The notes below the pieces were generated by a model. The model was not told the origin of the DNA. It did not search any database and worked only from the letters and a program-made list of their open reading frames with translations. This document shows positions 1,059 through 63,620 of a DNA stretch of 64,000 nucleotides, in pieces. The translations under genes were made by a program, and so were the position numbers. The stretch is from Malacoraja senta (Eukaryota), in contig CM075993.1 in the NCBI GenBank assembly GCA_038087875.1, positions 10,108,001-10,172,000 of the forward strand, read 5' to 3'. The number at the start of each line of letters is the position of its first letter. Within the stretch, counting starts at the first letter, position 1.

Positions 1059-1240
1059 TGTATGAAGGGACTGCGGATGCTGGTTTAAACCAAAGATAGA
1101 CACAAAAGCTGGATTAACTCAACGGGACAGGCAGCATCTCTGGAGAGAAGGAATGGGTGACATTTCGGGTCTGAAGAAGGGTCTCGACCCACAACGTCAC
1201 CCATTCCTTCTCTCCAGAGATGCTGCCTGTCCCGCTGAGT
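1059..1240. mobile_element. Penelope-derived fold-back mini-element, subfamily A
   Basis: Arm ..gcagcatctctggagagaaggaatgggtgac and its reverse complement. Confidence 0.8.
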
Positions 1241-1518
1241 GATAGAATCGTGGAGTGATACAGATGTGGAAACAGTGATACAGATGTGGAAAGATGTGTC
1301 CATCTTTGGTTTTAAATCTATTCTTCTTATTCTGTTGCCTGTTATTTTTCCAGCACATTTCACATTCGGATCTGAAGGGCCGAGACGGGACTGGTGTACA
1401 AGAAGGCAGGTGCACGCAAGGTCAGGGCCGACCCCCCCCCCTCTGATCTCTCAACCCTCTGGAACTATCGTGTACAGGTGGCACAGCTGGTTGGAACTGC
1501 AGGGAAAGAGCGGCCTGC

Positions 1519-1550
1519 CTCTCTCTCTCTCTCTCTCTCTCCTCCTCCTC
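1519..1550. repeat. (CT)n/(CCT)n microsatellite
   Basis: Direct reading. Confidence 0.9.
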
Positions 1551-1999
1551 GTCATGTCCATCTGAGAACAGGCTGGATCGCTGATAGTTCCAGCATCTGC
1601 TCCCTCTGCTTGGAAACCCGAAGAGCAGGTGACCGACCGACCGACCGATCTTCACGTCAGCAGTGTTCCTGAACTACTCTCTTGAATTTCTCACTGAAGG
1701 CAGTGACAGTGAAGGGCATTCACTCCAGGAAGCACAGGCAGATTCTAGGGCTAAATCCTCTTTGTCAGTATTTTATATCACAACACACTTTGCCCTCTAC
1801 TGGGGTTTCAAGGAAACCTTTCTATATCCCCACTGTTTTGTAATCGCTTGCTGCAGATGTTTAGGGTATTAACTTTCATTCAGAGTTGTTTGTTGTAAAT
1901 CGCCGGTTTTGGTGATTCTTCATTGCAGCAGCTTCCTCATGGACTGTGCGACCAGTGTGTGTCCCTGCCCCCTCAACGCATCTCCCCTCGACACCTGAG

Positions 2000-2600
2000 T
2001 AGGAAGGAACTGCAGATTTAACTGCTGGTTTAAACTGAAGATGGAATCAAAAAATCTGGAGGGACTGAGCGGGTCAGGCAGCATCTCTGGAGAAGAGCAA
2101 TAGGTGACGTTTTCGGGTCGAGACCCTTCTTCAGACTGAGAGTCGGGGGGGAAAGGGAAACAAGAGATATAGACGGTGATGTAGAGAGATATAGAACAAT
2201 AGAATCAAAGAATTAACGATGATAAAGGCAAAAGGCCATTGTTAGCTGTGGCTAAAGTGAAAACTAGGTGCAAAGTAACCCTTGCATCCCCCCTCTCTCC
2301 ATCCATCCCCCACTCATGTCGTACCAGCTTCAAGTTGTCTTGTTGAATCTGACTGTCTATACTCGTTTCACCCGCCCACAGCTAACAATGGGCTGTTTAC
2401 TTGATCATCATTACTTTTTTGCACATCTTTCATTCATTTGTTCTATATCTCTCTCTACATCACTGTCTTTATCTCTCGTTTCCCTTTCCCCTGACTCAGT
2501 CAGTAAGAAGGGTCTCGACCCGAAATGTCACCTATTGCTCTTCTCCAGAGACGCCGCCTGGGCCGCTGAGTCACTCCACCTTTTCGTGTCCCCTCTACAC
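2000..2600. mobile_element. Penelope fold-back (two 3' ends tail-out)
   Basis: 2000-2265 is an inverted relative of about 2380-2600. Confidence 0.75.
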
Positions 2601-2910
2601 CTGTCTGTGTTTCACAACTCCTACAGGGACCCCCAGCGGTATAACTCAGTGGGCCGGTGGCAGGAAGACTGGGATCAGCCGCTGTGGCTGGGTCTGTGCT
2701 TGCGGCGGGTAGTTTGGGCTGTGCTTGGATCTGAAAGGGCCGGTGGGGGCGGGTGATCAAATACAGCACAGCGCCGTGCTACGGGGGGGGGGTTCATGGG
2801 TTACATTGCACCTAGTTCCCACCTGGGCCGCGGCTAACAATGACCTGTGTCCTTTATCATCGTTATGTTTTTGCATATCTTTCATTGTGTTACCGGCTAT
2901 TATCCCACGC

Positions 2911-2946
2911 CAGCGCAGCGCAGTGCCGTGCCGTGCCGTGCCGTGC
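2911..2946. repeat. (CAGCG)n(GTGCC)n microsatellite
   Basis: Direct reading. Confidence 0.8.
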
Positions 2947-3449
2947 TAGGAGGCTGGGGACCATTGTGTTACCGGCTATACTAACCCAGTCATCACCAAG
3001 CATGAATGAAACTTTCTGCCTCCCCCATTCTTTTCTAATTCCAGTATCAGAGAGGTACTGGAGCACAAGGACAATCACGTGGCTGTAACAGCCAGTGGAA
3101 GGGCTCTGTCATTACACTATTTGGACTCATTCTCATTGGGAGGATCGGTGATTTCTTGATTCCAGGTTGAATATTCTCTTTCATTTCCTTTCGGTTTTCT
3201 TGCAACTGAATGTAAGCAATTGATGTCGACTGATATCTCTGCGTCTATCCCCGTTGGAAACCTCTGGTTATATTTTGAATATATGGCTTTCCCATTGCTT
3301 GTTGTCTTAATAAATAAATGAAAGCAATCCGACTGCTCAAGCTGTGTCCACACACTGTACCACCATCCACAGTTCCATGCATCTACCATCCATTGTACTG
3401 TTACCACAGACTCACACATTCACTTCCATATTCCACACACTGCACCACA

Positions 3450-3700
3450 TCCACCTGGGCCTGGCTAAGATGGCCATTCGTGGGTCCAGGCAGCGGGTCG
3501 TCGATGGTCACACCAGAGTCGGCTGCCTGCCCCTCTTCCGGGCCTACATCCGTGCTCGCGTGTCCCTGGAGAGGGAACACGCGGCGTCCACGTGGACTCT
3601 AGACGCCTTCCGTGAACGCTGGTCGCCGCGGCATTTAAAGTATTTGAAATATTGTCTTTGTATTAAGCATGTTTTTATTTGACCCAAGGGCAATGGCTGC
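3450..3700 (+). mobile_element. Tx1-like LINE ORF2 C-terminal fragment
   Basis: LGLAKMAI..SRQR..CLPLFRAYIRARVSLEREHA..LDAFRERW. Confidence 0.7.
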
Positions 3701-4155
3701 CCCTTAGTGCACTGGTCTGAGATATCCACCGGGCTTCAGTAGACGCACTCTGGAGGCACACAAGAAATTGCAGATGCTAGGAATCTTGATCAAATTACAA
3801 AGTGCTGGAGGAACTCAGTGGGTCAGGCAGCCTCTGTAAAGGACAGTCTGAAGAAGGATCCCAAAACGTCACCTCCTCAGATGCTACTTGACCCGTTGAG
3901 TTCCTCCAGCACTTTGTGTTTTGAAGCACTTTCGGCACTGAGTTAGAATATCAGGGACAGACACAAAATATTCGAGTAACTCAGCTGGATAGGCAGTTTC
4001 TCTGGAGTGAAGGAAAGGGTGACGTTTCGGGTCGTGACCCTTCTTCACTATCAGGGAGTGAGTATCTAGTGCTGAGGGAGCTGGATCCCCTGGATACAAC
4101 CATGAACAGGAGCCCTTCCTGGTCTCTCCGATGCTCCCTCTGCAACTGGATGCTC

Positions 4156-6012: not shown

Positions 6013-6038
6013 CTCAAACCAATCTTCTTTCCCTTGAA

Positions 6039-6263
6039 GGTAGAGAAAATTGCTGGAGAAACTCAGCGGGTGCGGCAGCATCTATGGAGCGAAGGAAATA
6101 GGGACGTTTCGTGCGGCAGCATCTATGGAGCGAAGGAAATAGGCGACGTTTCGTCCCGAAACGTCTCCTATTTCCTTCGCTCCATAGATGCTGCCGCACC
6201 CGCTGAGTTTCTCCAGCAATTTTCTCTACCTTTGATACTCCAGCATCTGCAGTTCCTTCTTCA
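6039..6263. mobile_element. Penelope-derived fold-back, subfamily B
   Basis: Inverted arms; degenerate direct repeat caa.cttctttccct.ga on both flanks. Confidence 0.8.
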
Positions 6264-6529
6264 ACCTTCTTTCCCTCGACTTCATTTACACTTCACGCTG
6301 CCTTGGCAAGGCCAGCAGCTTAATCAATGACCAGTCGCGCCCTTTACTGGACCTTATCTCACAGTAAACGTTATTCCCTTTAACGTATATCTGTACACTG
6401 TGGGCGGCACAATTGTAATCATGTACCGTCTTACTGCTGACTGGATAGCACACGACAATACCTGGTTAGACAGGACAATAAACTAGAATCTGACCATATG
6501 CTTAGACTTTGATGTACCGCAGAACCTGA

Positions 6530-7137: not shown

Positions 7138-7529
7138 TTAGGTGCAATCCTCCCTTAAATAAACTACTATGATGATTGTTCGTCAAATGTACTGTTAGAA
7201 CTACCCTCATCTTGGTGAAAGGAACTATGTAAGTGAGGGTTCAAAATGTCCAGCAGAAAATGATCACATCACATTGTTACGCAGGCTTTACGCCTCCGCT
7301 TTCTGCCTCTCTGCCTCAGTGGTGGGAGAGTGGAGTGCAGTTCGCAGAGCAACACAGCCCTCTGAGTTTGCCAGACTCGTATCAGCAAACATGCCACCCC
7401 TGGCCAAAGCTCCAGAGATACCATCAGCCAGACTCTCTGCTTCTGCCAAACGTCGAGATCCAGCGTCATTTCAGACTCAAATGGTTAACATCTCTTTAAG
7501 TGAGGAAAAGGTCAATGTTAAAATCTTTT

Positions 7530-7965
7530 GTGTAGGAAGGAACTGCAGATGCTGGTTTACACCGAAGATACACAAAATGCTGGAGTAACTCAACGGGACA
7601 GGCAGCATCTCTGGAGATAAGGAATGGGTGACGTTTCTGGTCGAGACCCGTAAGGGGCTCGACCCGAAACGTCACCCATTCCTTCTCGCCAGAGACAGAG
7701 GCAGAAAACTGAGGCATAAAGCCTGTGTAACAATGTGATGTGATCATTCCTTCTCTCCAGAGGTGCTGCCTGTCCCGCTGAGTTACCCCAGCATTTTGTG
7801 TCTACCTTCAATTTAAACCGGCATCTGCAGTTCTTAACCTTTCTTCAGATTACCCAAAACGTCATCCATTCCTTCTCTCCAGAGATGCTGCCTGTCCCGC
7901 TGAGTTACCCCAGCATTTTGTGTCTATCTTCGGTGTAAACCAGCATCTGCAGTTCCTTCTAACAC
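7530..7965. mobile_element. Penelope-derived fold-back, subfamily A, with an extra arm and a templated insertion
   Basis: Inverted arms. Confidence 0.8.
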
Positions 7966-8071
7966 ATTTCACCTGCTGTTGCGGATAGCACGCATCCTTC
8001 CACAGAAACGTATGTGGAAACCAGCAAGCCCTGGCTTTGAAGAGACGATGCATATCATACAGTCAATGGAG

Positions 8072-9180: not shown

Positions 9181-9683
9181 TTCCGAGATTTACTGCAAAG
9201 AAAATCAATGAGATTCCTTGCAGCTGATCAACTAGATCGACTGATCTAGCTTCCTTGTAGCTGACCAACTAGATCGACTAGATCGACTGATCTAGCTTCC
9301 TTGCAGCTGATCAACTAGATCGACTGATCTAGCTTCCTTGTGACTGACCAACTAGATCGACTAGATCGACTGATCTAGCTTCCTTGTAGCTGATCAACTA
9401 GATCGACTGTACACAAAAATGCTGGAGAAACTCAGCGGGTGCAGCAGCATCTATGGAGCGAAGGAAATAGGCAACGTTTCAGCCCGAAACCTGGCCTATT
9501 TCCTTCGCTCCATAGATGCTGCTGCACCCGCTGAGTTTCTCCAGCATTTTTGTGTACCTTCAATTTTCCAGCATCTGCAGTTCCTTCGTTAAAACTAGAT
9601 CGACTGATCTAGCTTCCTTGTAGCTGATCAAGCTGATCAACTAGAAGGAATCTCATTGATTTACTTTGCAGTAAATCTCGGAA
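9181..9683. repeat. 39-bp inverted repeats enclosing a 37-46-bp tandem array rich in GATC/CTAG/AGCT/TCGA
   Basis: 9181-9219 is the reverse complement of 9645-9683 (1 mismatch); unit gcagctgatcaactagatcgactgatctagcttcctt. Confidence 0.85.
9410..9592. mobile_element. Penelope-derived fold-back, subfamily B
   Basis: Inverted arms; aactagatcgactg at 9396-9409 and 9593-9606. Confidence 0.85.
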
Positions 9684-10640: not shown

Positions 10641-10902
10641 AGTCGTTAGTTTAATCCACTGATACGAGCTGGTTTACTCAGGGGTGTTTGGATCCGAAGC
10701 CTTCAGTCCTCATCCCCTGCTGATGTACACACCATGGTGACTCAGGACACTGAACTCCAAGCAATGCTCGCAGTCATTCACACATCTCCAATTGCTCCTT
10801 GCGTTTGGTGCTTCCCAATTTAGAACTGGTCCACCAATGACACAATAACTACGACAATAACCCCACTCCAGGCTCCCACGGAACTCACACAAACCTATGG
10901 GG

Positions 10903-11610
10903 ATGGACACAAAATGCTGGAGTAACTCAGCAGGACAGGCAGCATCTCTGGAGATAAGGAATGGGTGACGTTTCGGGTTGAGACCCTTCTTCCGACCGAG
11001 AGTCAGATGAGAGGGACGCACAGAGATAAGGAAGGGCAAGGTGTGAAAACAAGACATCAAGGGAGATGCAGCTCAAGGAAAATGTAGAATAGATAATTGT
11101 TAGCGAGGAGACGGTGACAACGAGGCATACAAAGATGAAATGTAATCAGAGGGACAGTCAGACTGGTTGGAGAACTATGGAAGGGGAGGGATGGAGAGAG
11201 AGAAGGAAATCAAGAGTTACTTGAAGTTAGAGAAGTCAATGTTCATACCGCTGGGGTGTAAGCTGCCCAAGCGAAATATGAGGTGCTGTTCTTCCAATTT
11301 GCACTGGGCGACACTCTGACAATGGAGGAGGCCCAGGACAGAAAGGTCAGTGTGGGAATGGGTGGGGGGGGGGGTTAAAGTGCTCTGCCCCTCCCCCACC
11401 CGAGTCGTCCTGCCAGTTCCACTGTTTACATCCATACATCCCTTCGTTATCACATCTTCCACAGCCAACAATGGGCCATTGTGGGCTCCACCATCCCTTG
11501 GTCATTGGTGCCGGCTCGGATTCGTTCTCAACCTTTTCATGCCTCTAGTTTCCCTCTCCCCTGACTCTCAGTCTCAGTCATCTATTCCTTTGCTCCAGAG
11601 GGGCTGCCTG
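10903..11610 (-). mobile_element. Penelope-like element fragments in inverted arrangement
   Basis: Minus strand SHSHTDLSVLGLLHCQS..RLGSLHPSGMNIDFSNFK*; plus-strand 3' UTR follows at 11385-11610. Confidence 0.8.
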
Positions 11611-12876: not shown

Positions 12877-13410
12877 GTGACCTGTATCAGCGAGAACAGG
12901 TGCAGGCTCGGCGATTGTTTCGCTGAACACCTCCGCTCAGTCCGCCTGAACCTACCAGATCTCCCGGTTGCTCAACATTTTAACTCCCCCTCCCATTCCC
13001 ACACTGACCTTTCTGTCCTGGGTCTCCTCCATTGTCAGAGTGAGGCCCAGCGCAAATTAGAGGAACACCACCTCATATTTCACTTGGGCAACTTACACCC
13101 CAGCGGTATGAACGTAGACTTCTCTAACTTCAAGTAGCCCTTGCTTTCCCCCTCCCTCCTTCCCCTCCCCCAACCTAGTTCTCTGATGAGTCTTACTGTC
13201 TCTGACTACATTTTATCTCTGTACCGCCCACTCCCCTGACATCAGTCGGAAGAAGGGTCTCGACCTGAAGTCACCCATTCCTTCTCTCTAGAGATGCTGC
13301 CTGTCCTTCTCTCCAGAGATGCTGCCTGTCCTTCTCTCCAGAGATGCTGCCTGTCCTTCTCTCCAGAGATGCTGCCTGTCCCGCTGAGTTACTCCAGCCT
13401 TTTGTGTCTA
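12877..13410 (+). mobile_element. Penelope-like element 3' fragment (GIY-YIG C-terminus plus arm)
   Basis: RLGDCFAEHLRSV..PVAQHFNSPSHS..HPSGMNVDFSNFK*. Confidence 0.85.
13280..13379. repeat. 25-bp tandem x4 (CCTTCTCTCCAGAGATGCTGCCTGT) within a Penelope arm
   Basis: Four direct copies. Confidence 0.9.
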
Positions 13411-13594
13411 GGCCCAGTAAAGAGTTGACTTTAAAGAAAAATGGAGGGGGAGGCGAGAGAACAAAGTTCAGAGCATTCCAGGGTGAACACCCAATCACGG
13501 ACTTTAAAGTCAACATTTCTTCTCAAACCCATTATCTAAATGCAATTATCAAAACTCTCAACTATTTCCTTATGTTCGTAACTTACAGATTCAG

Positions 13595-14585: not shown

Positions 14586-14992
14586 AGGATAAAAGTTACA
14601 CCCAGAGTGAAACTCTCATAAATGAATGCTGCACAAGTTCATTTCTTGCTGGGTTTTGAGTACTGATCACATAGTGGAGATTGCTCCAGACATAATGAAG
14701 ACCTTTGTATCTTCTTCAGCTATAGGCGAGGTCCCAGAGGACTGGAGAGCAGACAATGTTGTGTACAAAAGAAAATACGGATTATCCATAACATTATATC
14801 CCCGTGAGGCTCACATCAAAATAAGGATTATCCATAACATTATATGCCCGTGAGGCTCACATCAGAGGTAGGGAAGCTATTGGAGAGGATTCTTAGCACT
14901 GTTCTATGTTCTAGTATCAGAGAGACAAGATGCAATGACTTTCTGAGCCTCCTTGAATCAGAACTCGCTGCCAGGGTATGTAGAATAGATGT

Positions 14993-15144
14993 GTTTAAGA
15001 AGGAACTGCAGATGCTGGAAAATCGAAGGTAGACAAAAGTGCTGGAGAAACTCAGCGGGTGCAGCAGCATCTATGGAGCGAAGGTTTCCTTCGCTCCATA
15101 GATGCTGCTGCACCCGCTGAGTTTCTCCAGCACTTTTGTCTACC
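14993..15144. mobile_element. Penelope-derived fold-back, subfamily B
   Basis: Inverted arms; perfect 16-bp TSD tatgtagaatagatgt at 14977-14992 and 15145-15160. Confidence 0.88.
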
Positions 15145-15629
15145 TATGTAGAATAGATGTCTACTTTGAAGAACTTCTCCGACTCTGTGATTCCTCCTGC
15201 CACTTTTTGCATCTTTTTCATTCATTGTTCTATATCTCTCTCTCTCCATCACCGTCTATATCTCTCGTTTCCCTTATCCCTAACCAGTCTGAAGCAGGGT
15301 CTTGACCCCATTCCTTCTCTCCAAAGATGCAGCCTGACCCACTGAGTTACTCCAGCTTTTGGTGTCCACCCTATATAGAATAGAACCAAACCTGCATTCA
15401 CCTAGCGGGTCCCGACCCGAAACGTCACCCATCCTTTTTTCTTCAGAGATGCTGCCTGTGACTCGCTGAGTTACTCCAGCACTCTGTGTCTATCTCTGGC
15501 CTTGTCCCTTTTCAAATGAAGGCAAATCCCAGAAGAGCCACTTACCATGTGTCTCCTACACCAGGGCTCAGTCCACATAAATGACCCCAGCCATTTTAAT
15601 TCACCCACTCCAATCTGTCTGGGGCCTCG

Positions 15630-18189: not shown

Positions 18190-18710
18190 CCTTGTGATGA
18201 CAAAGAATGGATCAACTGGGATTGAATTCACTGGAATTTAGAAGGATGAGAGGCAATCTTATAGAAACAAATACAATTCTTAAAGGTAGACAAAATTGCT
18301 GGAGAAACTCAGCGGGTGTGGCAGCATCTATGGAGCGAAGGAAATAGGCAACGTTTCGGGCCAAAACCCTTCTTCAGCCTATTTCCTTCGCTCCATAGAT
18401 GCTGCTGCACCCGCTGAGTTTCTCCAGCAATTTTGTCTACCTTCGATTTTCCAGCATCTGCAGTTCCTTCTTGAACAAAATTCTAAAGGGATTGGACACG
18501 CTAGACGCAGGAAAATTGTTCCCCATGTTGGGGGGGGGTCCAGAACCAGTGGTCACAGTTTAAGAATAAGGGGTAGGCCATTTAGGACTGAGATGAGGAA
18601 AAACCTTTTCACCCAGAGAGTTGTGAATCTGTGGAATTCTCTGCCACAGAGGGCAGTGGAGGCCAATTCACTGGATGTACATATTGAAGAGAGAGTTAGA
18701 CAGAGCTCTT
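18190..18710 (+). mobile_element. CR1 fragment interrupted by a Penelope fold-back (18284-18478)
   Basis: SRTSGHSLRIRGRPFRTEMRKNLFTQRVVNLWNSLPQRAVEA. Confidence 0.85.
18284..18478. mobile_element. Penelope-derived fold-back, subfamily B
   Basis: Inverted arms inside CR1. Confidence 0.85.
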
Positions 18711-24590: not shown

Positions 24591-24951
24591 CCAATCTAAC
24601 AATGGGCCATTATGGGCTCCACCCTTCCTTGGTCATCTGCTGCCAGTTCCGGCATTTTCCCACCTCCGGTTCCCACCCCCTCTACTTTCAGTCTGAATAA
24701 GGGTCCCGACCCGGAACGTCACCAATCCCTTTTCCTCGGATGCTGCCTGACCCGCTGAGTTACTCCTTCATGGCAATCTCCTATTCAAAAGCTCCACATG
24801 CACTTTGATACCTTGTGGAAGATTCTGAACCAGCCAAATGACAACACAAAAAGCCCTGAAAAGGCTCTGGAGTTTCAGACTGATTCACTGAAAGTTTAAT
24901 GAAGAGCAACCAAAAAATAATCCCTCGGCTAACAAATAGAATAACTAAGAT

Positions 24952-34062: not shown

Positions 34063-34177
34063 ACTAGTTGATAGTTACAAAAGCTGCAGTAACTCAGTGG
34101 GCCAGACAGCATCTCTGGAGAAAAGGAATGGGTGACGTTTCGGGTCGGGATCCTTCTTCAGACAGAGTCAGGGGAAA

Positions 34178-41586: not shown

Positions 41587-41749
41587 GGGGAACATCAGGG
41601 TGGTTGAGGCTGATACGATGGTGGTGTGTAAGAGACTTTTGGATAGGCACGTGGAAATGCAGGGATTGAAGAGATACGAGTTACGTGCAGGCAGATAGGA
41701 GTTTAGTTTAACTCTTCGATTTACAGCTCCTTTCGACACAAGAGTTTAG

Positions 41750-42258
41750 TTCAAGAAGGAACTGCAGATGCTGGAAAATCGAAGGTAGTCAAAAATGCTG
41801 GAGAAACTCGGCGGGTGCAGCAGCATCTATGGAGCGAAGGAAATAGGCAACGTTTCGGCCCGAAACCCTTCCGGGTTTCGTCCCAAAACGTTGCCTATTT
41901 CCTTCAGGGTTTTCGGCCCGAAACGTTGCCTATTTCCTTCAGTGTTTTCGGCCCGAAACGTTGCCTATTTCCTTCAGGGTTTTCGGCCCGAAACGTTGCC
42001 TATTTCCTTCAGGGTTTTCGGCCCGAAACGTTGCCTATTTCCTTCAGTGTTTTCGGCCCGAAACGTTGCCTATTTCCTTCAGGGTTTTCGGCCCGAAACG
42101 TTGCCTATTTCATTCAGTGTTTTCGGCCCGAAACGTTGCCTATTTCCTTCAGGGTTTTCGGCCCGAAACGTTGCCTATTTCCTTCAGGGTTTTCGGCCCG
42201 AAACGTTGCCTATTTCCTTCGCTCCATAGATGCTGCCGCACCCGCTGAGTTTCCCCCA
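41750..42258. mobile_element. Penelope-derived fold-back, subfamily B, containing a 35-bp array
   Basis: Inverted arms flank the array. Confidence 0.85.
41873..42220. repeat. 35-bp tandem array x10 (G[G/T]GTTTTCGGCCCGAAACGTTGCCTATTTCCTTCA)
   Basis: Head-to-tail units without spacers. Confidence 0.95.
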
Positions 42259-42259: not shown

Positions 42260-42690
42260 TGTTTAGTTTAGTTTGTTTTATTGTCACGTGTGCAGAGGTA
42301 CACAGAAAAGCTTTTGTTGCGTACTAACCAGCCAGCAGAATGGTAATACACAGTTATAATCGAGTCATTTACAGTGTATAGATACATGAGAAGGGAATTA
42401 GGTTTAGTGCAAGGTAAAGCCAGAAAAGTCCGATCAAAGGGTCTCCAATGAGGTAGATAGTAGTTCAGGACTGCACTCTACTTGTGGTAGGATGGATCAG
42501 TTTTAGCTGTTAACAGCTGGGAAGAAACTGTTCCCAAATATAGTGGCGTGTTTTCACCCTTCTGTATCTTTTACCTAAGAGGGGGAAGAGGGAGTGGCCA
42601 GGGTGCGACTGGTCCCTGATTATGCTGCTGGCCTTGCCGCGGCAGCGTGTGGCATAAATGGAGTCAATGGAATGGGAGGTTGGTTTGTGT
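42260..42690 (-). mobile_element. Rex1/Babar 3' fragment (third family)
   Basis: Minus strand encodes ..SIYATRCRGKASSIIRDQSHPGHS..; related 3' UTR pieces at about 6345-6490, 47585-47900 and 55545-56000. Confidence 0.7.
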
Positions 42691-45647: not shown

Positions 45648-46237
45648 AGCCTGCGGACTTTAACCGTGGATATTCAGGGTCCAACCTTTATTGACCATCT
45701 GCAATTATCCTTGAATTGACTGGACCGTTCACCTCTGAGCCTTCATGACATGTTTCACAAGAGGCATTTAAAATTGAAAGGACATTTAATAGAGACATTC
45801 AAACTTCATTGCATCTTTTAAATAAATTCTGATGAAATTCTGACACAATCGAGCAAAGAAATAGTTTAGAATAATATTGAATAAGTAATTGGAATATTTA
45901 TTCCGAAGGTCCGACGGCCCGCAGTGGGTGGGTGGGGGGGGGCGCTGAGAGAGTAATGAGGTACCCACCATTGGGGGGTGGGGGAGGGGGGGGCTGAGAG
46001 AACCATTGGAGACCACAGTGAACACTCTGTAACTTTGACTCCTTGCATACATTGTGTATGGAATGCAAAACAAAGACTTTCACCGTGTCATGACACAAGT
46101 GTTGATAGAGTCTGAAGAAGGGTCTCGACCCAAAACGTCACCTATTTCCTTCGCTCCATAGATGCTGCCTCACCCGCTGAGTTTCTCCAGCATTTTTGTC
46201 TACCTTCAATTTTTCCAGCAACTGCAGTTCTTTCTTA

Positions 46238-46558
46238 AAGCCCTGTCCCACGGTACGAGTTCATTCAAAGAGCTCTCCCGAGTTTGCCCTGATTCGAACT
46301 CGGAGATTTACGGTAATGGCCGTTCGTCGGTACTCGGGTCTCTCGTGGACATTTTTCAACTTGTTGAAAAATCTTCACGAGTCTTCCCGAGCTTACCTGC
46401 CGTTAGCGAGTCTTCCCGAGTACCTGCCGTTAGCGCTAAGAGACGTCCCCGAGCTCCGACGTACCCGCTTCGTTGATTCTCCGTGCTTACCACGAGTTTG
46501 ATTTTTTTTTAAACTCGGGAGAGCTCTTGGAATGAACTTGTACCGTGGGACAGGGCTT
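46238..46558. mobile_element. PIF/Harbinger-type MITE (same family as 11992-12311)
   Basis: TIRs and TTA TSD; inserted in the TTA at the end of a Penelope B arm (compare intact ttcttaaaca at 30251-30260). Confidence 0.88.
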
Positions 46559-47261
46559 TTAAACATAAAGTATTAATTAATCAATTGAATAGGAGCAAAT
46601 GGATTTGGAAAATGTCATGGGCTTGGATCAGAGTGGATAACATCAAGAACGATGCTAGCATGGAGAAAGATAGCATCAAACTACCAGATGCAAGATAATA
46701 ACTGAAGCTGTGGTCTGGACTTTGTCTGTACATCAGACCAATCACTGGGATCATCAGTGTATTTGCTTCACCACAATCGTGTTATATAATTACAGTCATA
46801 GAGTGAAACGCCGTGGAAACAGGCCCGTCAGCCCAACTTGCCCGCATCGGCCAACATGTCCCAGCTACACGTCCCACATGCCCACATTTGGTCCATATCC
46901 CTCCAAACCGGTCCTATTCATGTACCTGTCTAACGGTTTTTAAATGTTGGGATAGTCCTTGCCTCAACTACCTCCTTTCATACACCCACCACCCTTTGTT
47001 TGAACAGCAGTAGTGCAGTTTTACAAAATATGTCAAATGAAAACAGGTATAAAAATAGAATGTATGTTCTGTTAAAAAGTGTAAGGCCGAGCCCCTTGAT
47101 TATACTGACCTTGTGAAAACCAATAGACTTTTATTTGTGGCCAAGATACTTTTGTGCAACAGATGTTTAAGCAGCGATTCAACTTCTGTTCAAAGTAAGT
47201 GGCTGAGGTTTGGCAAAAGTTTAAGGAAAATATTTGTTGCAAAATACAAACCTTACAAGAA

Positions 47262-47450
47262 GATCGACACAAAAAGCTGGAGTAACTCGGGACAGGCAGC
47301 ATCTCTGGAGAGAAGGAATGGCCGACCTTTCGGTTCGTGACCCTTATTCAGTCACCCATTCCTCCTCTCCAGAGATGCCGCCTGTCCTGCTGAGTTACTC
47401 CAGCATTTTGTGTCTGGTTTAAACCAGCATCTGCAGTTCCTTCCTACACA
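47262..47450. mobile_element. Penelope-derived fold-back, subfamily A
   Basis: Inverted arms. Confidence 0.8.
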
Positions 47451-47659
47451 AATATTACAAGACCATACCAGATTCCATTTAAAACTTTCAAAGGACACTA
47501 TATACAATAATAGAACCTCATAAAGATTTTCAAGAATTTGATTTCCCATTTATTGCCTGTGCAGGAGGCTGAGGGGCGAACTTAGTTTAGTATATGGTCA
47601 CGTGTATCGAGGTGCAGTGGAAAGCTTTTGTTGCATGCTAACCAATCAGTGGAAAGCCA

Positions 47660-49485: not shown

Positions 49486-50234
49486 CCCTCTAGTTTTAGT
49501 AGCATCTTGCTTTCCTCAACTGAATTCCAGGAAATGTTTTACAAAAAATAGCATTTCACCACATTTTGTACTTTTTTGGAGGAAGCCCAATGCATAATGA
49601 AGTGTTGGTGAGCATCGAAAAAAAACCATATACAGCACAGCAGAGGGCTCCTTCTTATTCTCCTCAAGTCTCTCCAGGTCTTTAGTTTAGAGATACAGTG
49701 CAGAAACAGGCCCTTCGGCCCATCGAGTCCACAACTACCAGCAATCCCCGCACATTAACACTACCCTACACACACCATGGACAATTTGACATTTATACCA
49801 AGCCAATTAACCAACAAACCTGTACGTCTTTCAACTTGGGAGAGTAAAACTTACCAAGTGAAATGTATTACACTAACACATAATTTCTCAGTTTGGACTA
49901 GTGAGCAGAAACCAAATGAGAATCAGATACTCAAGATCCACAAAAGGCAAATAAAAGTAAATGTTAAACTGTATTATTTTTCGCTAGAGATGCTGCCTGA
50001 CCCACAGAGTCTGGAATTGTACTCGGAATTTTAGACGAGGAAATTAAGTGGGACAGCAGGTTTAAATATGGTCAGAGGTTTACAGCATGGAAACAGGCCC
50101 TTTCTCCAGCACTGTGTCTAAAATGAAACCTGACGTTGGTTGCATTAACTAGAGGCAGTGAGAGGCTACAGGGCGGTGTGGTTTAGTGTGGGTTTATACG
50201 ACAGCAGAGTGCAAATTGTCTCAGGCTAAACAAG

Positions 50235-50445
50235 TATGTGTAGGAAGGAACTGCAGATGCTGGTTTAAACCGAAGATAGGCACAAAAAGCTGGAGTAACT
50301 CAGCGGGACAGGCAGCATCTCTGGAGAGAAGGAATGGGTGACGTTATGGGTTTGAAGACGGGTCTCAACCCGAAATGTCACCCATTCCTTCTCTCCAGAG
50401 ATGCTGCCTGTCCTGCTGAGTTACTCCTGCATTGTGTGTCTATCT
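50235..50445. mobile_element. Penelope-derived fold-back, subfamily A
   Basis: 14-bp degenerate TSD tcaggc.a.acaag at 50221-50234 and 50446-50459. Confidence 0.85.
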
Positions 50446-51032
50446 TCAGGCCAGACAAGGCTATGACAAGGCTCTCACGATTGATGGTGTAAGAGGAAGT
50501 CCTGTCCACAGCCAGATCCGGCACAAGCTACGATTAACTTGACAATCTTTCGTATGTGGAGAGCAAAAAAATGTCTCTCCACAACTTTTAACAGAAAGTC
50601 GCTGCATATTCTCCCAGCACAACAAATCTGACTCTGCATTTAAGAATTATTATTGAGGAAACATTTTCATAGCCGTAAGAACAAGCCGTTGGATTGATGG
50701 GATCAATGGAGTTCCGTCTAAGAGTTGCAGCACACAAATACCACAACTTCAGCTTACTACGAGATCAGTTTCAAAATCAATTGCTTGCAAGGAACCATGC
50801 AGCTTCCTCAACAGTACAAATACATGTTGGTTCCTTGAGCAATATTGCCCTGAGCATCTATCCATGTTCTCCGCTTGTGCTGTCTGACCCGCTGAGTTAC
50901 TCCAGTATTTTGTGCCTGTTTCTGTAAACCAGCATTTGCAGTTTCTTGTGTCCACAATTAATTCATGCCACCCAGAGCAGTTGGCACAGCAATAAAATTG
51001 GCCCCAGCTTCAGAATGGAAAGGCAACCAGAG

Positions 51033-54500: not shown

Positions 54501-55595
54501 CTGTAAATTTATAAATTGTCCCTAGTGTGTAGAATAGTGCGAGTGTATGGGGTGATCACTGGTCGGCACGGACTTAATGGGCTGAAGGGCCTGTTTCCAT
54601 GCTGTATCTCTAAAGTCTAAAGACTTCCTCTGGGTGCTCTGGTTTCCTCCCACATCCCAAAGACATGCTGGGGGATTAATTGGCTACCAAGATGCCCTCG
54701 TGTGCAAGCGAGGGCTAGAATCTGGAAGGGAAGGAATGGAAATACAGGGAGAATTAGTGCAGGTGGAAAGGTTGATGGTCAGTGCAGACTTGATGGGCCG
54801 AAGGGCATGCTTTCATGCCGAGTGCCTCTACGACCGAGTCTATAAATACCAGTAAACACGTTTCAAAGATTTATCACCAACTGAAGCGAGGATAACACTA
54901 CACTTTTTAAGATTCATCGCTGCAAAGCCTTTCACAGCCCAACTTCGCCACTGTGAGAAAACCCTGGGAAAGTCTGTGAAGGACAATCCATCAATTACTA
55001 CAGCTCAGGGACAGCAGACTAATGCTTAGATGAAAAATATTATTTATTGCCTTGCTGAATTACAGATTGAAAGGCATCCTTGAAAGACATAGAAGATTGT
55101 GTACACAATCAGGACTAAACATTCCCGCTACTTAAAATAATGCAATCAACCGATCCATCAAAACCAAAGCTTCAGGGACTCGCCTTCAGTTACGCTCACA
55201 AAACTGAAGGGAAAAGGGGCAGCATATGTGAATTTGGTGAAGTATGTGAAAAATGCACGCCTGCGGTTAAAAAAAATCTAATCTACTCATTACATGCTGT
55301 TCACATTGGTCCTATTTGTGAGAATTCCAAGTCCAAGTCAGGTCAAGTCTATTCGCCACATACACATACGAGATGTGCAGTGAAATGAAAAGTGCAATGC
55401 TTGTGGATTGTGCAAAATAACTAAACAGAATGGAACAGAATCACATATTCACATATTACATATTTGTGGGAGGAAAGAAAAAGGAAAAATGGAGAGAGCT
55501 TGTGACAACATTTTAAGCTTCAGGCTGAAGAGACCCTGCAAGGCTTCAGTTCAGTTTATTGTCACGTCTACCATGGTACAGTGAAAAGCTTTTGT

Positions 55596-55824
55596 GCAGG
55601 AAGCAACTGCAGGTGCTGGTGCTGGTTTAAACCGAAGATAGACACAAAATGCTGGAGTAACTCAGCAGGACAGGCAGCATCTCTGGAGAAAAGGAATGGG
55701 TGACGTTTCGGGTCGAGACCCTTCTTCTGAAGAAACTGAAAAAGGAATAGGTGACGTCACATATTCCTTCTCCCCGGTGATGCTGCCTGTCCCACTGAGT
55801 TATTCCAGCATTTGTGTCTATCAA
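55596..55824. mobile_element. Penelope-derived fold-back, subfamily A
   Basis: 14-bp TSD tgaaaagcttttgt at 55582-55595 and 55825-55838. Confidence 0.85.
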
Positions 55825-56061
55825 TGAAAAGCTTTTGTTGCATGCTAACCAGTCAGCGGAGAGGCAATACCTGATTATAATCGAGCCATTTACAGTGTAT
55901 AGATACATGATCGTGCAGGGTAAAGCCAGTACAGTTCCATCAAAGTCCGAGGGTCACCAATGAGGTAGATAGTAGTTCGGGACTGCTCTTTAGTCGTGGT
56001 GGTAGACAAAAATGCTGGAGAAACTCAGCGGGTGAGGCAGCATCTATGGAGCGAAGGAATA

Positions 56062-56094: not shown

Positions 56095-56841
56095 TCCTGG
56101 TGGCATCTGGTTCTATTAATCGACCACTCCCGGCTCCCAGCTCTCTGCTCCTTCACAGCAGTGAAGTGAACTTCAGGAGTACAGAGACACAAGGAACTAC
56201 AGATGCTGGTTTACCAATACAGACACCAAGTGCTGGAGTAACTCAGTAGATCAGGCAGCATTTCTGGGGAACGTGGATAGACAACATTTCAGGCCTGAGG
56301 AGTCCTGACCCAAAACGTTTCCTATCCATGTTCTCCAGAGATGCTGCCTGACCCACTGAGTTACCCCAGGCTGTTTTTCCAGAAGTACATTACTGGCTGC
56401 TAAATAGTTGATCCAGTTGCAGGCATTAATTTTATGGAAAATACTAGTTCTGGTTTATTTATTGATTTTAATATTAATAGTCACACTTCACACTACATCC
56501 TTTATTTGGTATGATGTTTGGTGCAACTATTGTGGGCTGAAGGGCCTGTTTTTGTGCTGTTCTATGTTCCACGTTTACCTGGATTAAATCCGTAGCGTCA
56601 GAGGGAGAGGGTGCAAACTCCAGACAGAGAGCATCGGAGGCAAGGATTGAACCCACGAGCTATGAGCCAACCACTCCACTTGCTGCACCACTGTGCCTTC
56701 AGTACATGACACCATTGCAATGCCTAAAACTTCCCTCGTTTAAACTTGGGCTACAGAGTGAAAATAATTTTCTAACTTCAAGTAATCCTTGAATTTCCTC
56801 TCTCTCCATCCCTCCCCTTCCCAGTTCTCCGACCAGTCTTA

Positions 56842-57338
56842 AGGGCCTGTCCCACCAGCATGCGGCAAGCGGGACCTAACGTGGTCGCTTGAGCCGTACG
56901 GCCTCGCGGGGCCGGTCCCACTTCGATCGCCGGAGCCGTATGGAGTTGTGCGGAGCTGGTCCCGACATCACGTGGGGCTCCGGAAAACTGACAGCGTTCA
57001 AAAATTCTGGGCGGCAACGGCCTGCCGGCCCGCTACCGCCTCGACGGCGTACGCACCGCCTCGACGGGCTTGCGCAGCGTCCCGACGCCGTACGCAGCGT
57101 CCCGACGCCGTACTTCACGCGCGAACTTCCCGCGGACTTCGCTCGAACTTCACGTCACTCACTCGACCTCCGCGCGGCCCCCGCTTACGGTTTGGTCGCG
57201 CTTGCCGCATGCAGTCGCATGCTCATGGGACAGGCCCTTTACGGGGATCACTCGACCTCCGTGCGACCCCCGCACGGCCCCCGCTTCCGGTTTGGTCACA
57301 CTTGCCGCATGCAGTCGCATGCTTGTGGGACAGGCCCT
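56842..57338. mobile_element. GC-rich PIF/Harbinger-type MITE with duplicated right end
   Basis: agggcctgtccca..tgggacaggccct; TTA at 56839-56841, 57239-57241 and 57339-57341. Confidence 0.85.
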
Positions 57339-57495
57339 TTACTGTCTCCAACTACATTTATTCTCTGTTTGCTTTGTTGTTATCTTCTCCCAGCTAACAA
57401 TGACATATTCGATATTTTCCTTGATCTCCATCCCCTTTGTCCTATTTTCACACCTTACACTTCCTTATCTATGTACCTCCATCTCCCCTGGCATC

Positions 57496-57529
57496 AGTCT
57501 GAAGAAGGGTCTCAACCCGAAACGTCACC
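57496..57529 (+). ncRNA. Minimal type I hammerhead ribozyme motif (Penelope-associated)
   Basis: gt-CTGAAGA-a-GGGT ctca ACCC-GAAA-CGT-C-ac: core boxes, 4-bp stem II, palindromic ACGT stem III, predicted cut after C57526. Confidence 0.7.
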
Positions 57530-58107
57530 CATTCCTTCTCCCAGTTTGTCGGAGCCCCGCGTGATGTCGGGACCAGCTCCGCACAACTCCATACGGCTCC
57601 GGCGATCGAAGTGGGACCGGCCCCGCGAGGCCGTACGGCTCAAGCGACCACGTTAGGTCGCTGCCTATTACTCCAGCATTTTTGCAGCAGATCTTGCTGC
57701 CTGAGTTACTCCAGCATTTTGTATCTATCTCCGGTTTAAGCCAGCATCTGCAGTTCCTTCTTACACAGAGTGAAAATAAAATTCTGCATGTCATTTATAA
57801 AATTCCAAAATGTTATTGATATATTGTTGAGGATAAACAAGATTTGAGGAATGCATTTAGTGCAAAAACGGCAATGTATGTGCACACTTAGCTGCTGTAA
57901 ATGTTAATTTACAATTTGAGAAGGTAAATCCTTTTTGCAAGGGAACTCCTGCCAACTCTCCTTATCAATGCTGAATCAAAAATACTGCTGTTTCTTCTTC
58001 GTACAACAATTTAAAGTGCAGTCTCTTACGCTGCTTTACATTCCTGCAGTCCTCGTTCCACTTTCAATATTTTGTCAATATATTCTGTCCTGGAATGCAA
58101 CAACTAT

Positions 58108-58284
58108 GTAGACACAAAGTGCTGGAGTAACTCAGCGGAACAGGCAGCATCTCTGGAGAGAAGGAATGGGTGACGTTTCGGGTCGAGTCCCTTCTTCAGA
58201 GTCTGATGGGTCTCAAGCCGAAACGTCCTTCTCTCCAGAGATGACCGTTGATTTAAACCAGCATCTGCAGTTCTTTCCTACACA
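58108..58284. mobile_element. Penelope-derived fold-back, subfamily A
   Basis: Inverted arms. Confidence 0.75.
58169..58200 (-). ncRNA. Minimal hammerhead ribozyme motif, sense to dapk2 pre-mRNA
   Basis: Minus strand tCTGAAGAaGGGactcgaCCCGAAACGTCacc. Confidence 0.55.
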
Positions 58285-58569
58285 TGCAGACTAGAAAGTA
58301 GAAGCTGCACTTCTGGAAAATAACTAGACCAAAGAGAATGAGAAACTCTCGCAGAAATAGCCAAGCTGATAACAGATTAAAAATGAGCAAAACTTGTCTG
58401 ATCTTGCTTAACTTCAAGAAAAATTCAGTGTAGGCCCTTTCTGACGCCCTTCCCGATCAGTTAGTATGGTTGTGTCTAATGTGTAGTGGAATAGTCACTG
58501 AACCGGACGCAAAATGAGAATTTCACTGTACTTGGGTGAATGCGGCTATGAAGCAACATTGAAGCATGG

Positions 58570-58690
58570 AGGTAGACAAAAGTGCTGGAGAAACTCAGCA
58601 GGTGCAGCAGCATCTATGGAGCGAAGGAAATAGATTCGCTCCATAGATGCTGCTGCACCCGCTGAGTTTCTCCAGCATTTTTGTCTACCT
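58570..58690. mobile_element. Penelope-derived fold-back, subfamily B
   Basis: Near-perfect palindrome of about 120 bp. Confidence 0.8.
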
Positions 58691-58957
58691 TCTCCAGAGA
58701 AGCTGCCTGACTTGCTGAGAAACTCCAGCATATGGCTAGGAGCAGGATTAGGCTATTCAGCACATCGAGTCTGCCTTTCAAAAACATCTGATCGATTTTC
58801 CCCTCTCAATCCCATTCTCCTGCCTTCTGCCGATAACCCTTGACGCCCTTCCTAAATCACGAAACTATCAATCTCCGCCTTCACCGCCCCAGTACTTTAC
58901 AAATGAAACCCAGTGTCTTTATTGTTAAACCACCATCTGCAGTCACTCATTTCTAAT

Positions 58958-61015: not shown

Positions 61016-61351
61016 GTCAGAGGAGGTAGTTGATGCAGGTTCTATAACAACATTTATATAGAGACTTTCCTGCTAATGAAAGTGTTTGATGGAGTAGACA
61101 TTGAGAGGACAATGCTCCTCGAGGAGATTACAACCAACCTCTTTTTATTTTTGGACAGGTACACGGATAGGATAGGTTTAGAAGGGTATGGGCCAAATGC
61201 AGGCAGATGGGATTAGTGAAGATGGGGCATCTTGGTTGGCCTGGGCAAGTTGGGCTGAAGGCCTGTTTTCCATGCTGTGCGACTCTATGACACAGCATGG
61301 AAACATATCAAACATAGGCATGCCACCATTTGTTCAGAGAAACTTCCTTTA

Positions 61352-61541
61352 ATCTGGTATGTTGTTGGTTCACATGTTTGATCAATGGTGTTTTATCATT
61401 AATGTCTTATTATTTTTAATGTTTAGTGTTTTCGGAGTCATTCGTAACTGTCACTGTATGTCATGTTGTTACTTGTGGGCGGAGCACCAAGGCAAATTCC
61501 TTGTATGTGAATACTTGGCCAATAAACTTACTTACTTACTT
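61352..61541 (+). mobile_element. LINE 3' UTR fragment with AATAAA and (CTTA)n tail (copy 2)
   Basis: Near-identical to 41400-41586. Confidence 0.7.
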
Positions 61542-61614
61542 TCAATCGATACATCTAATGAGATCAATTATTACATTTACCAGTTTGGTGCAAGTTTCCG
61601 TTAAATCATCTATG

Positions 61615-61791
61615 TTTAAGAAGGAACTGCAGATGCTGGAAAAATCGAAGGTAGACAAAAATGATGGAGAAACTCAGCGGGTGAGGCAGCATTATGGTGA
61701 CGTTTCGGGTCGAGACACGAAACGTCACCTATTCCTTCGCTCCATAGATGCTGCCTCACCCGCTGAGTTTCTCCAGCATTTTTGTCTACCT
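61615..61791. mobile_element. Penelope-derived fold-back, subfamily B
   Basis: 14-bp TSD ttaaatc(a/c)tctatg at 61601-61614 and 61792-61805. Confidence 0.85.
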
Positions 61792-62676
61792 TTAAATCCT
61801 CTATGCTACTTCATCAGCCACACCTTGTGGTAAAGAATTCCACATTCAGGGTGAACAGTTACTGCTAAGCTTGACTGGAAATTAATTTCGCAGCTGCCTG
61901 AGAGAGGTTGGCTGTAATCACCTCGAATAGCATTGTCCTCTCCATGTCTACTCCATCAAACACTTTCATTAGCAGGAACGTCTCTGCATTAGAACACTCA
62001 GGACATCAGTCATTTCTTTCAAGTCCTTTAATCCATCTTCATTTTGGAATATATAAGCGCTCGCTGTAACTGACCTGTAAGGAACTGTAAGGGGGGGACG
62101 GTGTCCACGCTGGCCACACACTCATTTCACCCCAGCCATCATTTATGATATTGTTCACAGTGTACTATGTTTTTTTAAATTATTTTTAATTAATTTTATT
62201 AGAAGCAATTGTACAAGAATAAGACGATCGACATAGCAGTTATACAATTATTGTACAGTTTCATTTTTAACCTTATCCCCTAAATCAAAAAAAAAGAAAA
62301 AAGAGAAAAAAAGAAAAAAAGTGTACTATACTATAAGTGTAATAACATTATATAATTTGTTACGCTGCAGCAAGTAAGAATTTCATTGTTCCATCTGGGA
62401 CATATGACAATAAAACACTCTTGACTCTTATTGCCGTTTGTCCGCTATAACCAAGCGGGGGAGGGTGGGGACAAATGCTAACCAGTTTAACCCAAGGGCC
62501 AGGTGGGAAGAAAGGGGGTGTCATGGATGTTAAACAAGGGGGAATTCACAGGCTGGGGAACCACAGAGTCCCGGCCCCACAGACCCGGTAATCACTCTGT
62601 GTTCATGCTGGAAGCTCCCGCCTCGTGGTACCAACTCACTGGGTAACCTGGTGGAAGTGGGGACGGGGCAGTGTAT

Positions 62677-63178
62677 AATAGACAATAGGTGCAGGAGCAG
62701 GCCATTTGGCCCTTCGAGCCAGCACTGCCATTCAATGTGATCATGGCTGATCATCCCCAATCAGTACCCCGTTCCTGCCTTCTCCCTGTATCCCCTGACT
62801 CCGTTATTTTTAAGAGCCCTATCTAGCTCTTTCTTGAAAGCATCCAGAGAACCTGCCTCCACCGCCCTCTGAGGCAGAGAATTCCACAGACTCACCACTC
62901 TCTGTGAGAAAAGGTGTTTCCTCGTCTCCGTTCTAAATGCCTTACTCCTTATTCTTAAACTGTGGCCCCTGGTTCTGGACTCCCCCAACATGTTTCCTGC
63001 CTCTAGCGTGTCCAAGCCCTTAACAATCTTATATGTTTCAATGAGATATCCTCTCATCCTTCTAAACTCCAGAGTATACAAGCCCAGCTGCTCCATTCTC
63101 TCAGCATATGACAGTCCCGCCATCCCAGGAATTAACTCTGTAAACCTACGTTGCACTCCCTCAATAGCAAGAATGTCC
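62677..63178 (-). mobile_element. CR1 LINE 3' fragment
   Basis: QRRFTELIPGMAGLSYAERMEQLGLYTLEFRRMRG. Confidence 0.9.
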
Positions 63179-63439
63179 TGGGAGAATGTAATGGGAGCCT
63201 GGCGCCGTTACCAGGTGACCGCGGCTGGCATTGACAGGGCGGCGCAGGTGTAGTGGCGCACACTGAGTCTACATCCAACCCCCATCCCCGGACCTCACTT
63301 TGTAGCAACCGCTGCACGCCCGTACCCAACGCTACACTTCTTCTCCCCGTCTCTGCCTTCCCACCGCGCTGCCTGCCGCCCGCCAACAGACAGCACCAAA
63401 CGACACCTCAGTCTGCCCTAACCACAATCTATTATATAG

Positions 63440-63620
63440 AAGATAGACACAAACAGCTGGAGCAACTCATCGGGACAGGCAGCATCTCTGGAGAGAAGGA
63501 ATGGATGACGTTTCGGGTCGAGACTCTTCTCTCAGAGATGCTGCCGGTCCCGCTGAGTTACTCCAGCCTTTTGTGTCTATCTTCAATTTAAAACAGCATC
63601 TGCAGTTCCTTCCTACACAA
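63440..63620. mobile_element. Penelope-derived fold-back, subfamily A
   Basis: Inverted arms. Confidence 0.8.

Follow-up and report, generated by a model that had tools for sequence, protein, structure and literature searches.

The palindromic repeats examined here lie in a 64,000-bp stretch of the Malacoraja senta genome (hereafter the window; contig CM075993.1 of assembly GCA_038087875.1, positions 10,108,001 to 10,172,000 of the forward strand) and are built from two inverted copies of an arm of about 130 nt. Our results indicate that these fold-backs are probably extremely 5'-truncated insertions of a Penelope-like element (PLE), each made anew by nicking of both target strands and priming from both ends. 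This reading draws on the PLE origin of the arm, target-site duplications (TSDs), empty sites, two discrete 3' ends, the coupling of these ends within single fold-backs, a tails-out geometry and microhomology at the centres. All window counts refer to this one stretch, and arm coordinates are numbered from C3 of the hammerhead ribozyme box, which is position 1.

Profile models made from window copies gave 93 arm matches in 50 clusters, which cover 7,531 of the 64,000 bp (11.8%), and no arm match when the same profiles were applied to the reversed window as a control. The arm had been predicted from the sequence to be the commonest repeat of the window, and its very high abundance was borne out. 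Once pieces separated by other inserts or by the 3' region of the element itself were joined, about 50 insertions were counted. Only 22 of these are fold-backs, so that the original prediction that most copies are palindromes did not hold; the palindrome length that it gave, 120-330 bp, applies to 18 of the 22. Its density of one copy per 2-3 kb fits the fold-backs alone (one per 2.9 kb) but not all loci, which occur about once per 1.3 kb. The arms of the fold-backs lie tails-out, with their 3' ends facing outward: among 22 adjacent minus/plus arm pairs at most 350 bp apart, 19 abut or overlap (gap of 23 or less), and the seven plus/minus neighbours are 29-338 bp apart. Alignment of 76 arms (15 low-scoring matches and two unalignable ones were dropped) showed that only 29 extend back to C3. 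As predicted, subfamilies A and B are distinguished by stem II, and a third type, C, as well as A bodies with a B-type hammerhead, are also present. When 197,835 contigs of a DNA run were aligned to one copy, the summed depth, which is not a copy number, was 62-68 million on the arm core versus 7-12 million on the endonuclease end, and this contrast agrees with arms far outnumbering element bodies. The arm was also present as contigs in three runs presumed to be RNA, although level, strand and ends are not readable from contigs. A search for the arm motif in viral, prokaryote and metagenome collections gave no match in any of them.

The 3' ends of the 76 aligned arms fall into two groups, with 33 arms ending at 86-102 (median 93, the near site), 27 at 120-131 (median 130, the far site), none at 103-119, and 16 shorter. 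The interval of about 37 nt between the two sites is the PLE 'tail', for which a length of 30-40 bp is reported (PMC3846280; PMC8557442, the latter cited here and below for excerpts). The two ends are coupled within single fold-backs. Among the 21 that were classed by their ends (the fold-back at 20281 was excluded as too decayed), 14 are far+near, five far+cut, two near+near and none far+far, which gives P=0.002 for the far+near coupling (14/16); if the near+near fold-back at 3761, in which the profile shows a diverged far end, is read by this hidden Markov model (HMM) end, the value becomes P=0.0003 (15/16). A permutation test gave P=0.0002 for the lack of far+far copies. An inverted, 5'-truncated copy with a 30-40 bp tail on one end only is a PLE trait, and it is found in the window. 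It had been claimed that in many copies one arm reaches the terminus and the inverted, tail-less arm stops 25-30 nt short; this plan was confirmed, but the shortfall is about 37 nt (median ends 93 and 130). Fifteen non-fold-back arms likewise end at the near site, one of them with its own 15-bp TSD. In a literature search whose coverage left out Repbase, Dfam and most subscription papers, such quantitative end coupling was not found in print. The fold-backs are as follows.

1056-1240: fold-back B; far end on the left, cut arm on the right; centre common to 50236
1983-2603: fold-back B; 3' region inside both arms; far+near; 15-bp TSD, 1 mismatch
3761-3921: old fold-back C; far (by HMM) + near
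6020-6276: fold-back A; nested extra arm piece; near+far; 15-bp TSD, 1 mismatch
7528-7967: complex cluster of type B, made up of a fold-back, upstream host DNA in inverted copy and two far-ended arms in tandem
9396-9606: fold-back A; near+far; 14-bp TSD 9396-9409/9593-9606 inside a host tandem repeat
14977-15384: fold-back A with 16-bp TSD 14977-14992/15145-15160, then a B copy (3' region + arm, near end)
18280-18477: fold-back A in a CR1-like repeat; near arm with intact core; far arm begins at the predicted cleavage site (arm 29)
24940-25217: fold-back B/C; far+near; 14-bp TSD, 2 mismatches
30060-30284: fold-back A; near+far; perfect 14-bp TSD 30060-30073/30271-30284; 8-nt near-site copy between far end and TSD
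39057-39385: fold-back B; 3' region inside; far + cut
41749-42256: fold-back A; ten 35-bp half-hammerhead repeats in the centre
47246-47462: fold-back B; near+far; 15-bp TSD, 2 mismatches
50221-50459: fold-back B; far+near; 14-bp TSD 50221-50234/50446-50459, 2 mismatches
55582-55838: fold-back B; far+near; perfect 14-bp TSD 55582-55595/55825-55838
56189-56371: old fold-back C; far + cut
58106-58285: fold-back B; near+far; near arm with intact boxes (58199, minus)
58566-58733: fold-back A; near+near (exception); then a B fragment
61601-61805: fold-back A; far+near; 14-bp TSD 61601-61614/61792-61805, 1 mismatch
63432-63620: fold-back B; near+far; no TSD found

TSDs of 14-16 bp were found in 10 of the 22 fold-backs, seven with at most one mismatch and three with two mismatches. 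A TSD score of at least 10 was reached by 6 of 21 fold-backs, compared with one among 420 mismatched flank pairs. Widening the scan brought in the fold-back 1983-2603 together with two non-palindromic copies, whose TSD length is like that of the fold-backs. All six copies for which direct repeats of 14-16 bp had been named do possess them (two with 1-2 mismatches, the others exact or in a tandem repeat). Moreover, the empty target site was found in three paralogous repeats for the fold-back at 30069 and in one (42277-42389) for that at 55592. The TSDs and empty sites together support the earlier view that each fold-back inserts as a unit, and the equal TSD length of copies linked to an open reading frame (ORF) supports its view that they were retrotransposed rather than moved as a DNA transposon. 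Eight of 11 TSDs start with ACA, CA or AAC-like letters beside the far end (five ACA, three CA, one AAC and two other), matching the AC-rich terminus of the element. The candidate TSD at 18280 was not counted; its flanks match loosely, and the rebuilt empty site is 4 nt shorter than the paralogues. In a separate case, one 15-16 bp target is present in three copies (14977, 15145 and 15370) that flank an A fold-back and the adjoining B copy, which suggests re-insertion into an earlier TSD.

Judged by its sequence context, the arm is best assigned to a Neptune-type PLE, as the terminal repeat of its 3' end together with the tail. It lies 110-222 nt downstream of the GIY-YIG C-terminus in three copies (12877-13410, 26229-27662, and 10901-11372 on the minus strand), and in the copy at 56768 the ORF is reduced to its last ~35 nt before the arm region. 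A GIY-YIG ORF and 3' untranslated region had been placed before the arm at three sites; this proved right at 12877 and 26230 and only partly so at 56770, where only the ORF remnant remains, and the minus-strand copy is an addition. With the arm following a GIY-YIG end in three copies and the last ORF codons in a fourth, the claim that it is the 3' end of a PLE stands. The best protein matches are skate proteins (72-74% identity) and a bamboo-shark protein (59%), pointing to an elasmobranch host, probably a skate. The remnant 26385-26955 aligns to residues 688-887 of an 889-aa homologue with reverse transcriptase (RT) and GIY-YIG domains, and the full-length homologues have RVT_1 and GIY-YIG. 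A C-x4-C-x2-C linker is present at 26555-26581 and in 79 of 104 long homologues; according to the available excerpts, a CX2-5CxxC linker marks Neptune and Nematis PLEs (PMC8557442), of which Neptune is preferred here because it is the type reported in vertebrates. A Pfam search with three window ORF pieces gave no GIY-YIG match and only one weak RING-like match. A direct arm piece precedes an internally deleted body at one place only (26325-27662), and direct pseudo-LTRs (pLTRs) around a full ORF were seen in the relative L003. The copies other than short fold-backs are listed below.

26229-27662, plus strand: most extensive PLE copy, comprising a tailed inverted arm (26229-26320), a short piece of direct arm, a frameshifted remnant of RT thumb, Cys linker and GIY-YIG (26385-26955) and the 3' region; the hammerhead is interrupted by an unrelated insert (~27160-27560), and the tail-less arm ends at 27662
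12877-13419, plus strand: 5'-truncated PLE copy; C-terminus of GIY-YIG and 3' region, then an arm that contains 27-nt tandem repeats and ends at the near site
10901-11372, minus strand: 5'-truncated PLE copy; end of GIY-YIG, 3' region of 222 nt, arm reaching the near site, with G in place of U4
56753-57779, plus strand: copy without fold-back; runs from the last ORF codons to the far end, interrupted by two other inserts; perfect 15-bp TSD 56753-56767/57765-57779; intact hammerhead boxes at 57499
57499-57526, plus strand: minimal hammerhead in its native setting, with the conserved boxes, an additional A, helix II of 4 bp, CG at 15.2/16.2 and helix I of only 2 bp
46107-46240, plus strand: solo full arm, C3 to far end, given as an example; about 25 further solo or tandem arms lie between 780 and 63727

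In the mechanism that we propose, the PLE protein, possibly acting as a dimer, would nick both target strands 14-16 nt apart, and the 14-16 nt 3' overhangs would then act as primers, one per strand. One cDNA would begin at the far site and the other at the near site about 37 nt upstream, and the two short, independent cDNAs would be joined by microhomology. Most cDNAs would stop in the hammerhead region, where the template may end or the enzyme may stall, since 59 of the 76 arm 5' ends lie at -10 to +40 (six lie beyond +40 and 11 arms run into the 3' region). In seven of the 15 far+near copies (1995, 3761, 18280, 26229, 47258, 50236 and 63432) it is the near arm that extends further upstream, by at least 15 nt, a pattern that a hairpin copying itself would not yield. 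A copy of the near-site octamer sits at 30262-30270, between the far end and the TSD of the fold-back at 30069, as if the same primer had started at the near site and then switched. Short centres show overlaps of 1-4 nt or, in subfamily A, coincide with a local 15-nt palindrome; the aligned contigs also contain joints with a change of strand at arm 3/41, 3/37 and -1/32. The centres differ from one fold-back to another, with the exception of the pairs 1056/50236 and 9400/30069, which sit at microhomology hot spots and whose arms are no closer than those of other copies. For comparison, the PLE protein of an anole, a predicted dimer, both nicks and extends the two strands in vitro, and its RT starts internally at two sites bounding the tail (PMC11167929).

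Hammerhead cleavage was also considered as the cause of the 5' ends and was rejected, with only 1 of 76 arms starting at 28-30 and 55 running past the site; in the anole system, cleavage is not needed for insertion and the motif requires protein (PMC11167929). A check for a sharp transcription start or splice acceptor before C3 found 14 of 76 arms starting at -3 to +2, within a broad spread. The 3' region itself is pyrimidine-rich and variable (11216-10995, 13135-13246 and 26953-27151); in most copies it opens with GT at the stop codon and closes with AG one base ahead of the motif. It is intron-like and resembles the Drosophila virilis intron that ends at helix I, and 3' regions of at least three unrelated types occur. 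No splice joint from stop codon to motif was seen among the 15 contig joints listed out of 305.

A possible but unlikely rival to this mechanism is a snap-back, in which one far-primed cDNA folds back and, once copied, forms a hairpin whose second end is cut some 37 nt short by the endonuclease; the tail would then come from resolution and not from a second priming. Craig et al., in the excerpts available, indeed assign the tail to endonuclease (EN)-mediated resolution of an intermediate (PMC8557442), and in 4-5 copies (55592, 61613, 9400, 30069 and 6034) the far arm is the one that extends further upstream. On the other hand, snap-back does not readily explain near arms with sequence not in the far arm (the seven copies above), the near-site relic at 30262-30270, the 15 non-fold-back arms that end at the near site, one with its own TSD, or the two RT start sites of the anole element in vitro. 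Snap-back is favoured in turn by the agreement in class between the two arms of every fold-back (21/21) and by their somewhat greater mean likeness (0.91 versus 0.85 for same-class pairs), and it accounts for the far+near coupling as well as double priming does. Weighing against priming from both ends, flank scans found no TSD for 12 of the 22 fold-backs, the fold-back at 58566 is near+near, five copies have a cut end, two pairs have a common centre, and the far 3' ends are limited to 131 by the length of the reference arm. The asymmetric centres could also stem from later deletion within the palindrome. The window contains no RT core, no N-terminus and no full-length element, so that the template RNA, its 5' end and any post-tail sequence are unseen, and the reading as a whole draws on sequence from one 64-kb window with 21 classed fold-backs.

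As predicted, the arm carries a hammerhead-type motif. Seven sites have both conserved boxes and helix II, compared with a mean of 0.09 (maximum 1) in 100 shuffles, and the motif occupies the same place in related elements; the further prediction that arms begin with a hammerhead did not hold for most, as only these seven sites keep boxes and helix II and 29 of 76 arms reach C3. The motif has the boxes, helix II, the extra nucleotide, G10.1-C11.1 and palindromic 15.2/16.2, and the helix III with loop-loop contacts of canonical hammerheads is absent from it. In the native context helix I has 2 bp (U-A or U-G plus G-C), below the minimum of 3 bp in the published descriptor, and the lone 3-bp case (27571) borrows from a neighbouring insert. 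In predicted folds, the probability of helix I was 0.0 in 7/7 copies and stem II was lost in three of four fold-backs. The core letters are kept at 390 of 426 positions (91.5%) compared with 4154 of 4775 (87.0%; per-site median 93%) elsewhere in the arm, and U4 is kept in 17 of 23 copies and changed in six. Among copies the core is no better kept than the rest of the arm, a comparison that is not informative, as expected for dead copies. The A/B differences within the motif (loop 2, two U-A to U-G pairs, and H17) all fit the fold. Among 80 related loci the motif was found in 17 of the 36 with room for it, 85-146 nt past the stop, and helix I, which was not required in the search, has 3-6 bp in 16 of 18 related motifs. 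In an alignment of two window motifs with 14 of 26 related ones, which omits near-duplicates and four others (three with helix I of 1-2 bp) and in which helix II pairs by construction, helix pairing held in 91.4% of cells versus 62.0% in shuffles (0/500) and 21-45% when slid. Its constant place and the covarying helix I in related PLEs argue that the hammerhead is genuine by descent, and with a 2-bp helix I it is probably weak here. Hammerhead models had been suggested as a check; the 54 Rfam matches included no hammerhead family, only hairpin-driven miRNA matches below the gathering score. Two further structures deserve mention. At 18280-18480 on the minus strand the fold-back is predicted to form a hammerhead-like junction with a helix I of ~60 bp in which C3 pairs with position 1.1, and the far arm begins exactly at the predicted cleavage site; at 41873-42220, in a fold-back centre, ten 35-bp repeats carry the second hammerhead box and cleavage triplet without the first box.

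The fold-backs were earlier described as a ribozyme-bearing, non-autonomous retrozyme-like class, that is, a lineage transcribed, processed by its hammerhead and re-inserted in trans by the PLE protein. Such a lineage is, in our judgement, quite improbable. Its appeal lies in the high density of TSD-flanked units, the centre common to two pairs, the arm sequence in contigs of runs presumed to be RNA, and the fold-back at 18280, which in a predicted fold forms the junction with the long helix I one nucleotide out of register; non-autonomous PLE derivatives (MRC1; PMC8557442) and animal retrozymes, one of them chondrichthyan (10.64898/2026.07.22.740005), are also known from excerpts of the respective papers. 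However, among the 22 fold-backs only two short ones have an intact core (18377 and 58199), helix I is unformed in the folds, and none fits the published descriptor. The centre-sharing pairs rank only 56/74, 46/71, 19/31 and 8/36 in same-class comparisons, and the window shows no sign of a master fold-back lineage, with no two of the seven intact sites in tandem and full motifs forming no tandem array. A single arm of the 76 begins at the cleavage site, a hairpin transcript is predicted to bury the motif in three of four folded cases, the genomic copies are without the post-tail RNA that the anole protein needs (PMC11167929), and the same plan is seen on longer related elements. Neither 'ribozyme-bearing' nor 'retrozyme-like' is supported: most palindromes are without the hammerhead motif and are thus probably dead products, not a self-spreading class. 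Under priming from both ends, the fold-backs are predicted to be dead on arrival, with the hammerhead a passenger inherited from the parent element. There is a slim chance that a subset is self-propagating, with the inverted arm supplying the long helix I that the parent's 2-bp hammerhead is missing; if so, an insertion by-product would have turned into a ribozyme hairpin RNA re-mobilised by the PLE protein. Far less credible still is a miniature inverted-repeat transposable element (MITE) of a DNA transposon that resembles a PLE end by chance. The copies are short, palindromic, abundant and flanked by TSDs like a MITE, but their arms differ by 37 nt and so form no terminal inverted repeat, the arm is contiguous with the GIY-YIG ORF end in four copies, and the non-palindromic copies share the TSD length. 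Cut-and-paste DNA transposon superfamilies have shorter, fixed TSDs, whereas those of the window are 14-16 bp and variable.

Other features of the window touch on these elements. An inverted copy of host DNA (~7255-7327) lies at 7684-7754 between arm pieces and was possibly captured during integration. A head-to-tail joint, 11356-10909, with a unit of ~450 nt from the near end to the endonuclease region, was seen in contigs of two organisms and may represent a partial tandem or a retrozyme-like unit. A PLE arm is split by a 4-kb LINE (34172-38170; L1/Tx1-like by eye) that has a long reading frame and a ~28 bp duplication. Palindromic GC-rich inserts resembling DNA transposons interrupt PLE copies at 27160-27560, 56845-57340 and 57545-57690, one of them inside a hammerhead box, and a 15-bp tandem array at 38470-39060 adjoins the far end of the fold-back at 39057.

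PLE integration, and what causes its inverted repeats and one-sided tail, is an open question in the field, and short TSD-bounded products with readable ends and centres offer a test bed for it. The coupling and the asymmetric centres constitute a genomic test of double priming versus hairpin resolution and extend the 2024 in vitro result to a second clade. The inverted repeat, tail, TSD and minimal hammerhead are already published PLE traits; what adds value is the quantitative end coupling. In practical terms, 12% of the window derives from a 130-nt PLE end, and such palindromes are prone to mis-annotation as MITEs or microRNA hairpins. The literature search, again with Repbase, Dfam and most subscription papers outside its coverage, returned no description of this arm family or of PLE double priming; the family may already be catalogued.

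A related mechanism outside PLEs is the twin priming of L1. Ostertag and Kazazian are said to have described in 2001 that the second target strand primes a second cDNA, giving a microhomology-joined inversion between TSDs. In L1 the second site reportedly lies anywhere upstream and the arms do not overlap, whereas in the window it is fixed 37 nt from the first, so that the arms overlap and form a palindrome. The other relevant non-coding, PLE-related units with a hammerhead-type motif are the animal non-LTR retrozymes, which, in the excerpts available, consist of 150-450 bp units repeated head to tail, contain complete type I hammerheads and have circular RNAs (PMC7229834; 10.64898/2026.07.22.740005); the window copies are instead single inverted pairs, mostly without a complete motif.

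Among PLEs, the minimal hammerheads (PMC4209133) share with the window motif the CUGANGA box, the extra nucleotide before G10.1, G10.1-C11.1, palindromic 15.2/16.2 and the lack of helix III, and an Acropora Neptune motif has an equal 4-bp stem II plan. The 2-bp helix I of the window is weaker than the two G-C pairs of Drosophila virilis, and Fig. S3 of that paper includes no chondrichthyan; dual minimal hammerheads on opposite strands 100-700 bp apart are known from Schistosoma (PMC4209133). The anole element PAc (Poseidon, Anolis carolinensis) agrees with the window family in its two internal RT starts bounding the tail, its AC-rich far site ~120 nt after hammerhead stem II and the use of uncleaved RNA as main template (PMC11167929). 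It belongs to another clade, and the region is the ORF start there, whereas in the five full-length relatives found here protein homology begins 257-773 nt after C3; the excerpts of that paper do not derive inverted copies from double priming (PMC11167929).

The window family also resembles the canonical EN+ PLEs of Neptune/Nematis type (PMC8557442, excerpts; PMC3846280), which have the same C-terminal GIY-YIG, CX2-5CxxC linker and strong 5' truncation, and likewise an inverted 5'-truncated copy, a one-end tail of 30-40 bp, a TSD and a terminal-repeat hammerhead. They differ in that the TSD is 8-10 bp in Adineta (PMC3846280; PMC8557442) versus 14-16 bp here, in that the window copies are mostly body-less, with the inverted pair alone, and in the very high local density of the latter (12% of the window). 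Inverted pLTRs with short extensions are described in the available part of a curation guide (PMC8969392), and very short PLE insertions, with a median of 128 bp, are reported in Chlamydomonas (PMC9977147, excerpts). L003, L014, L043, L064 and L065 are near full-length related PLEs with a 5' hammerhead, and four of the five have a frame that is open across the motif or directly after it. Three of five related loci examined (L012, L024 and L035) have the same plan as the fold-backs round bodies of 1.6-2.4 kb; their TSDs measure 11-13 bp, the inverted copy bears a tail of ~50-57 nt, and the tail-less ends lie 82-102 nt past C3. On present evidence, the fold-backs are the short end of a known PLE continuum and not a new element class.

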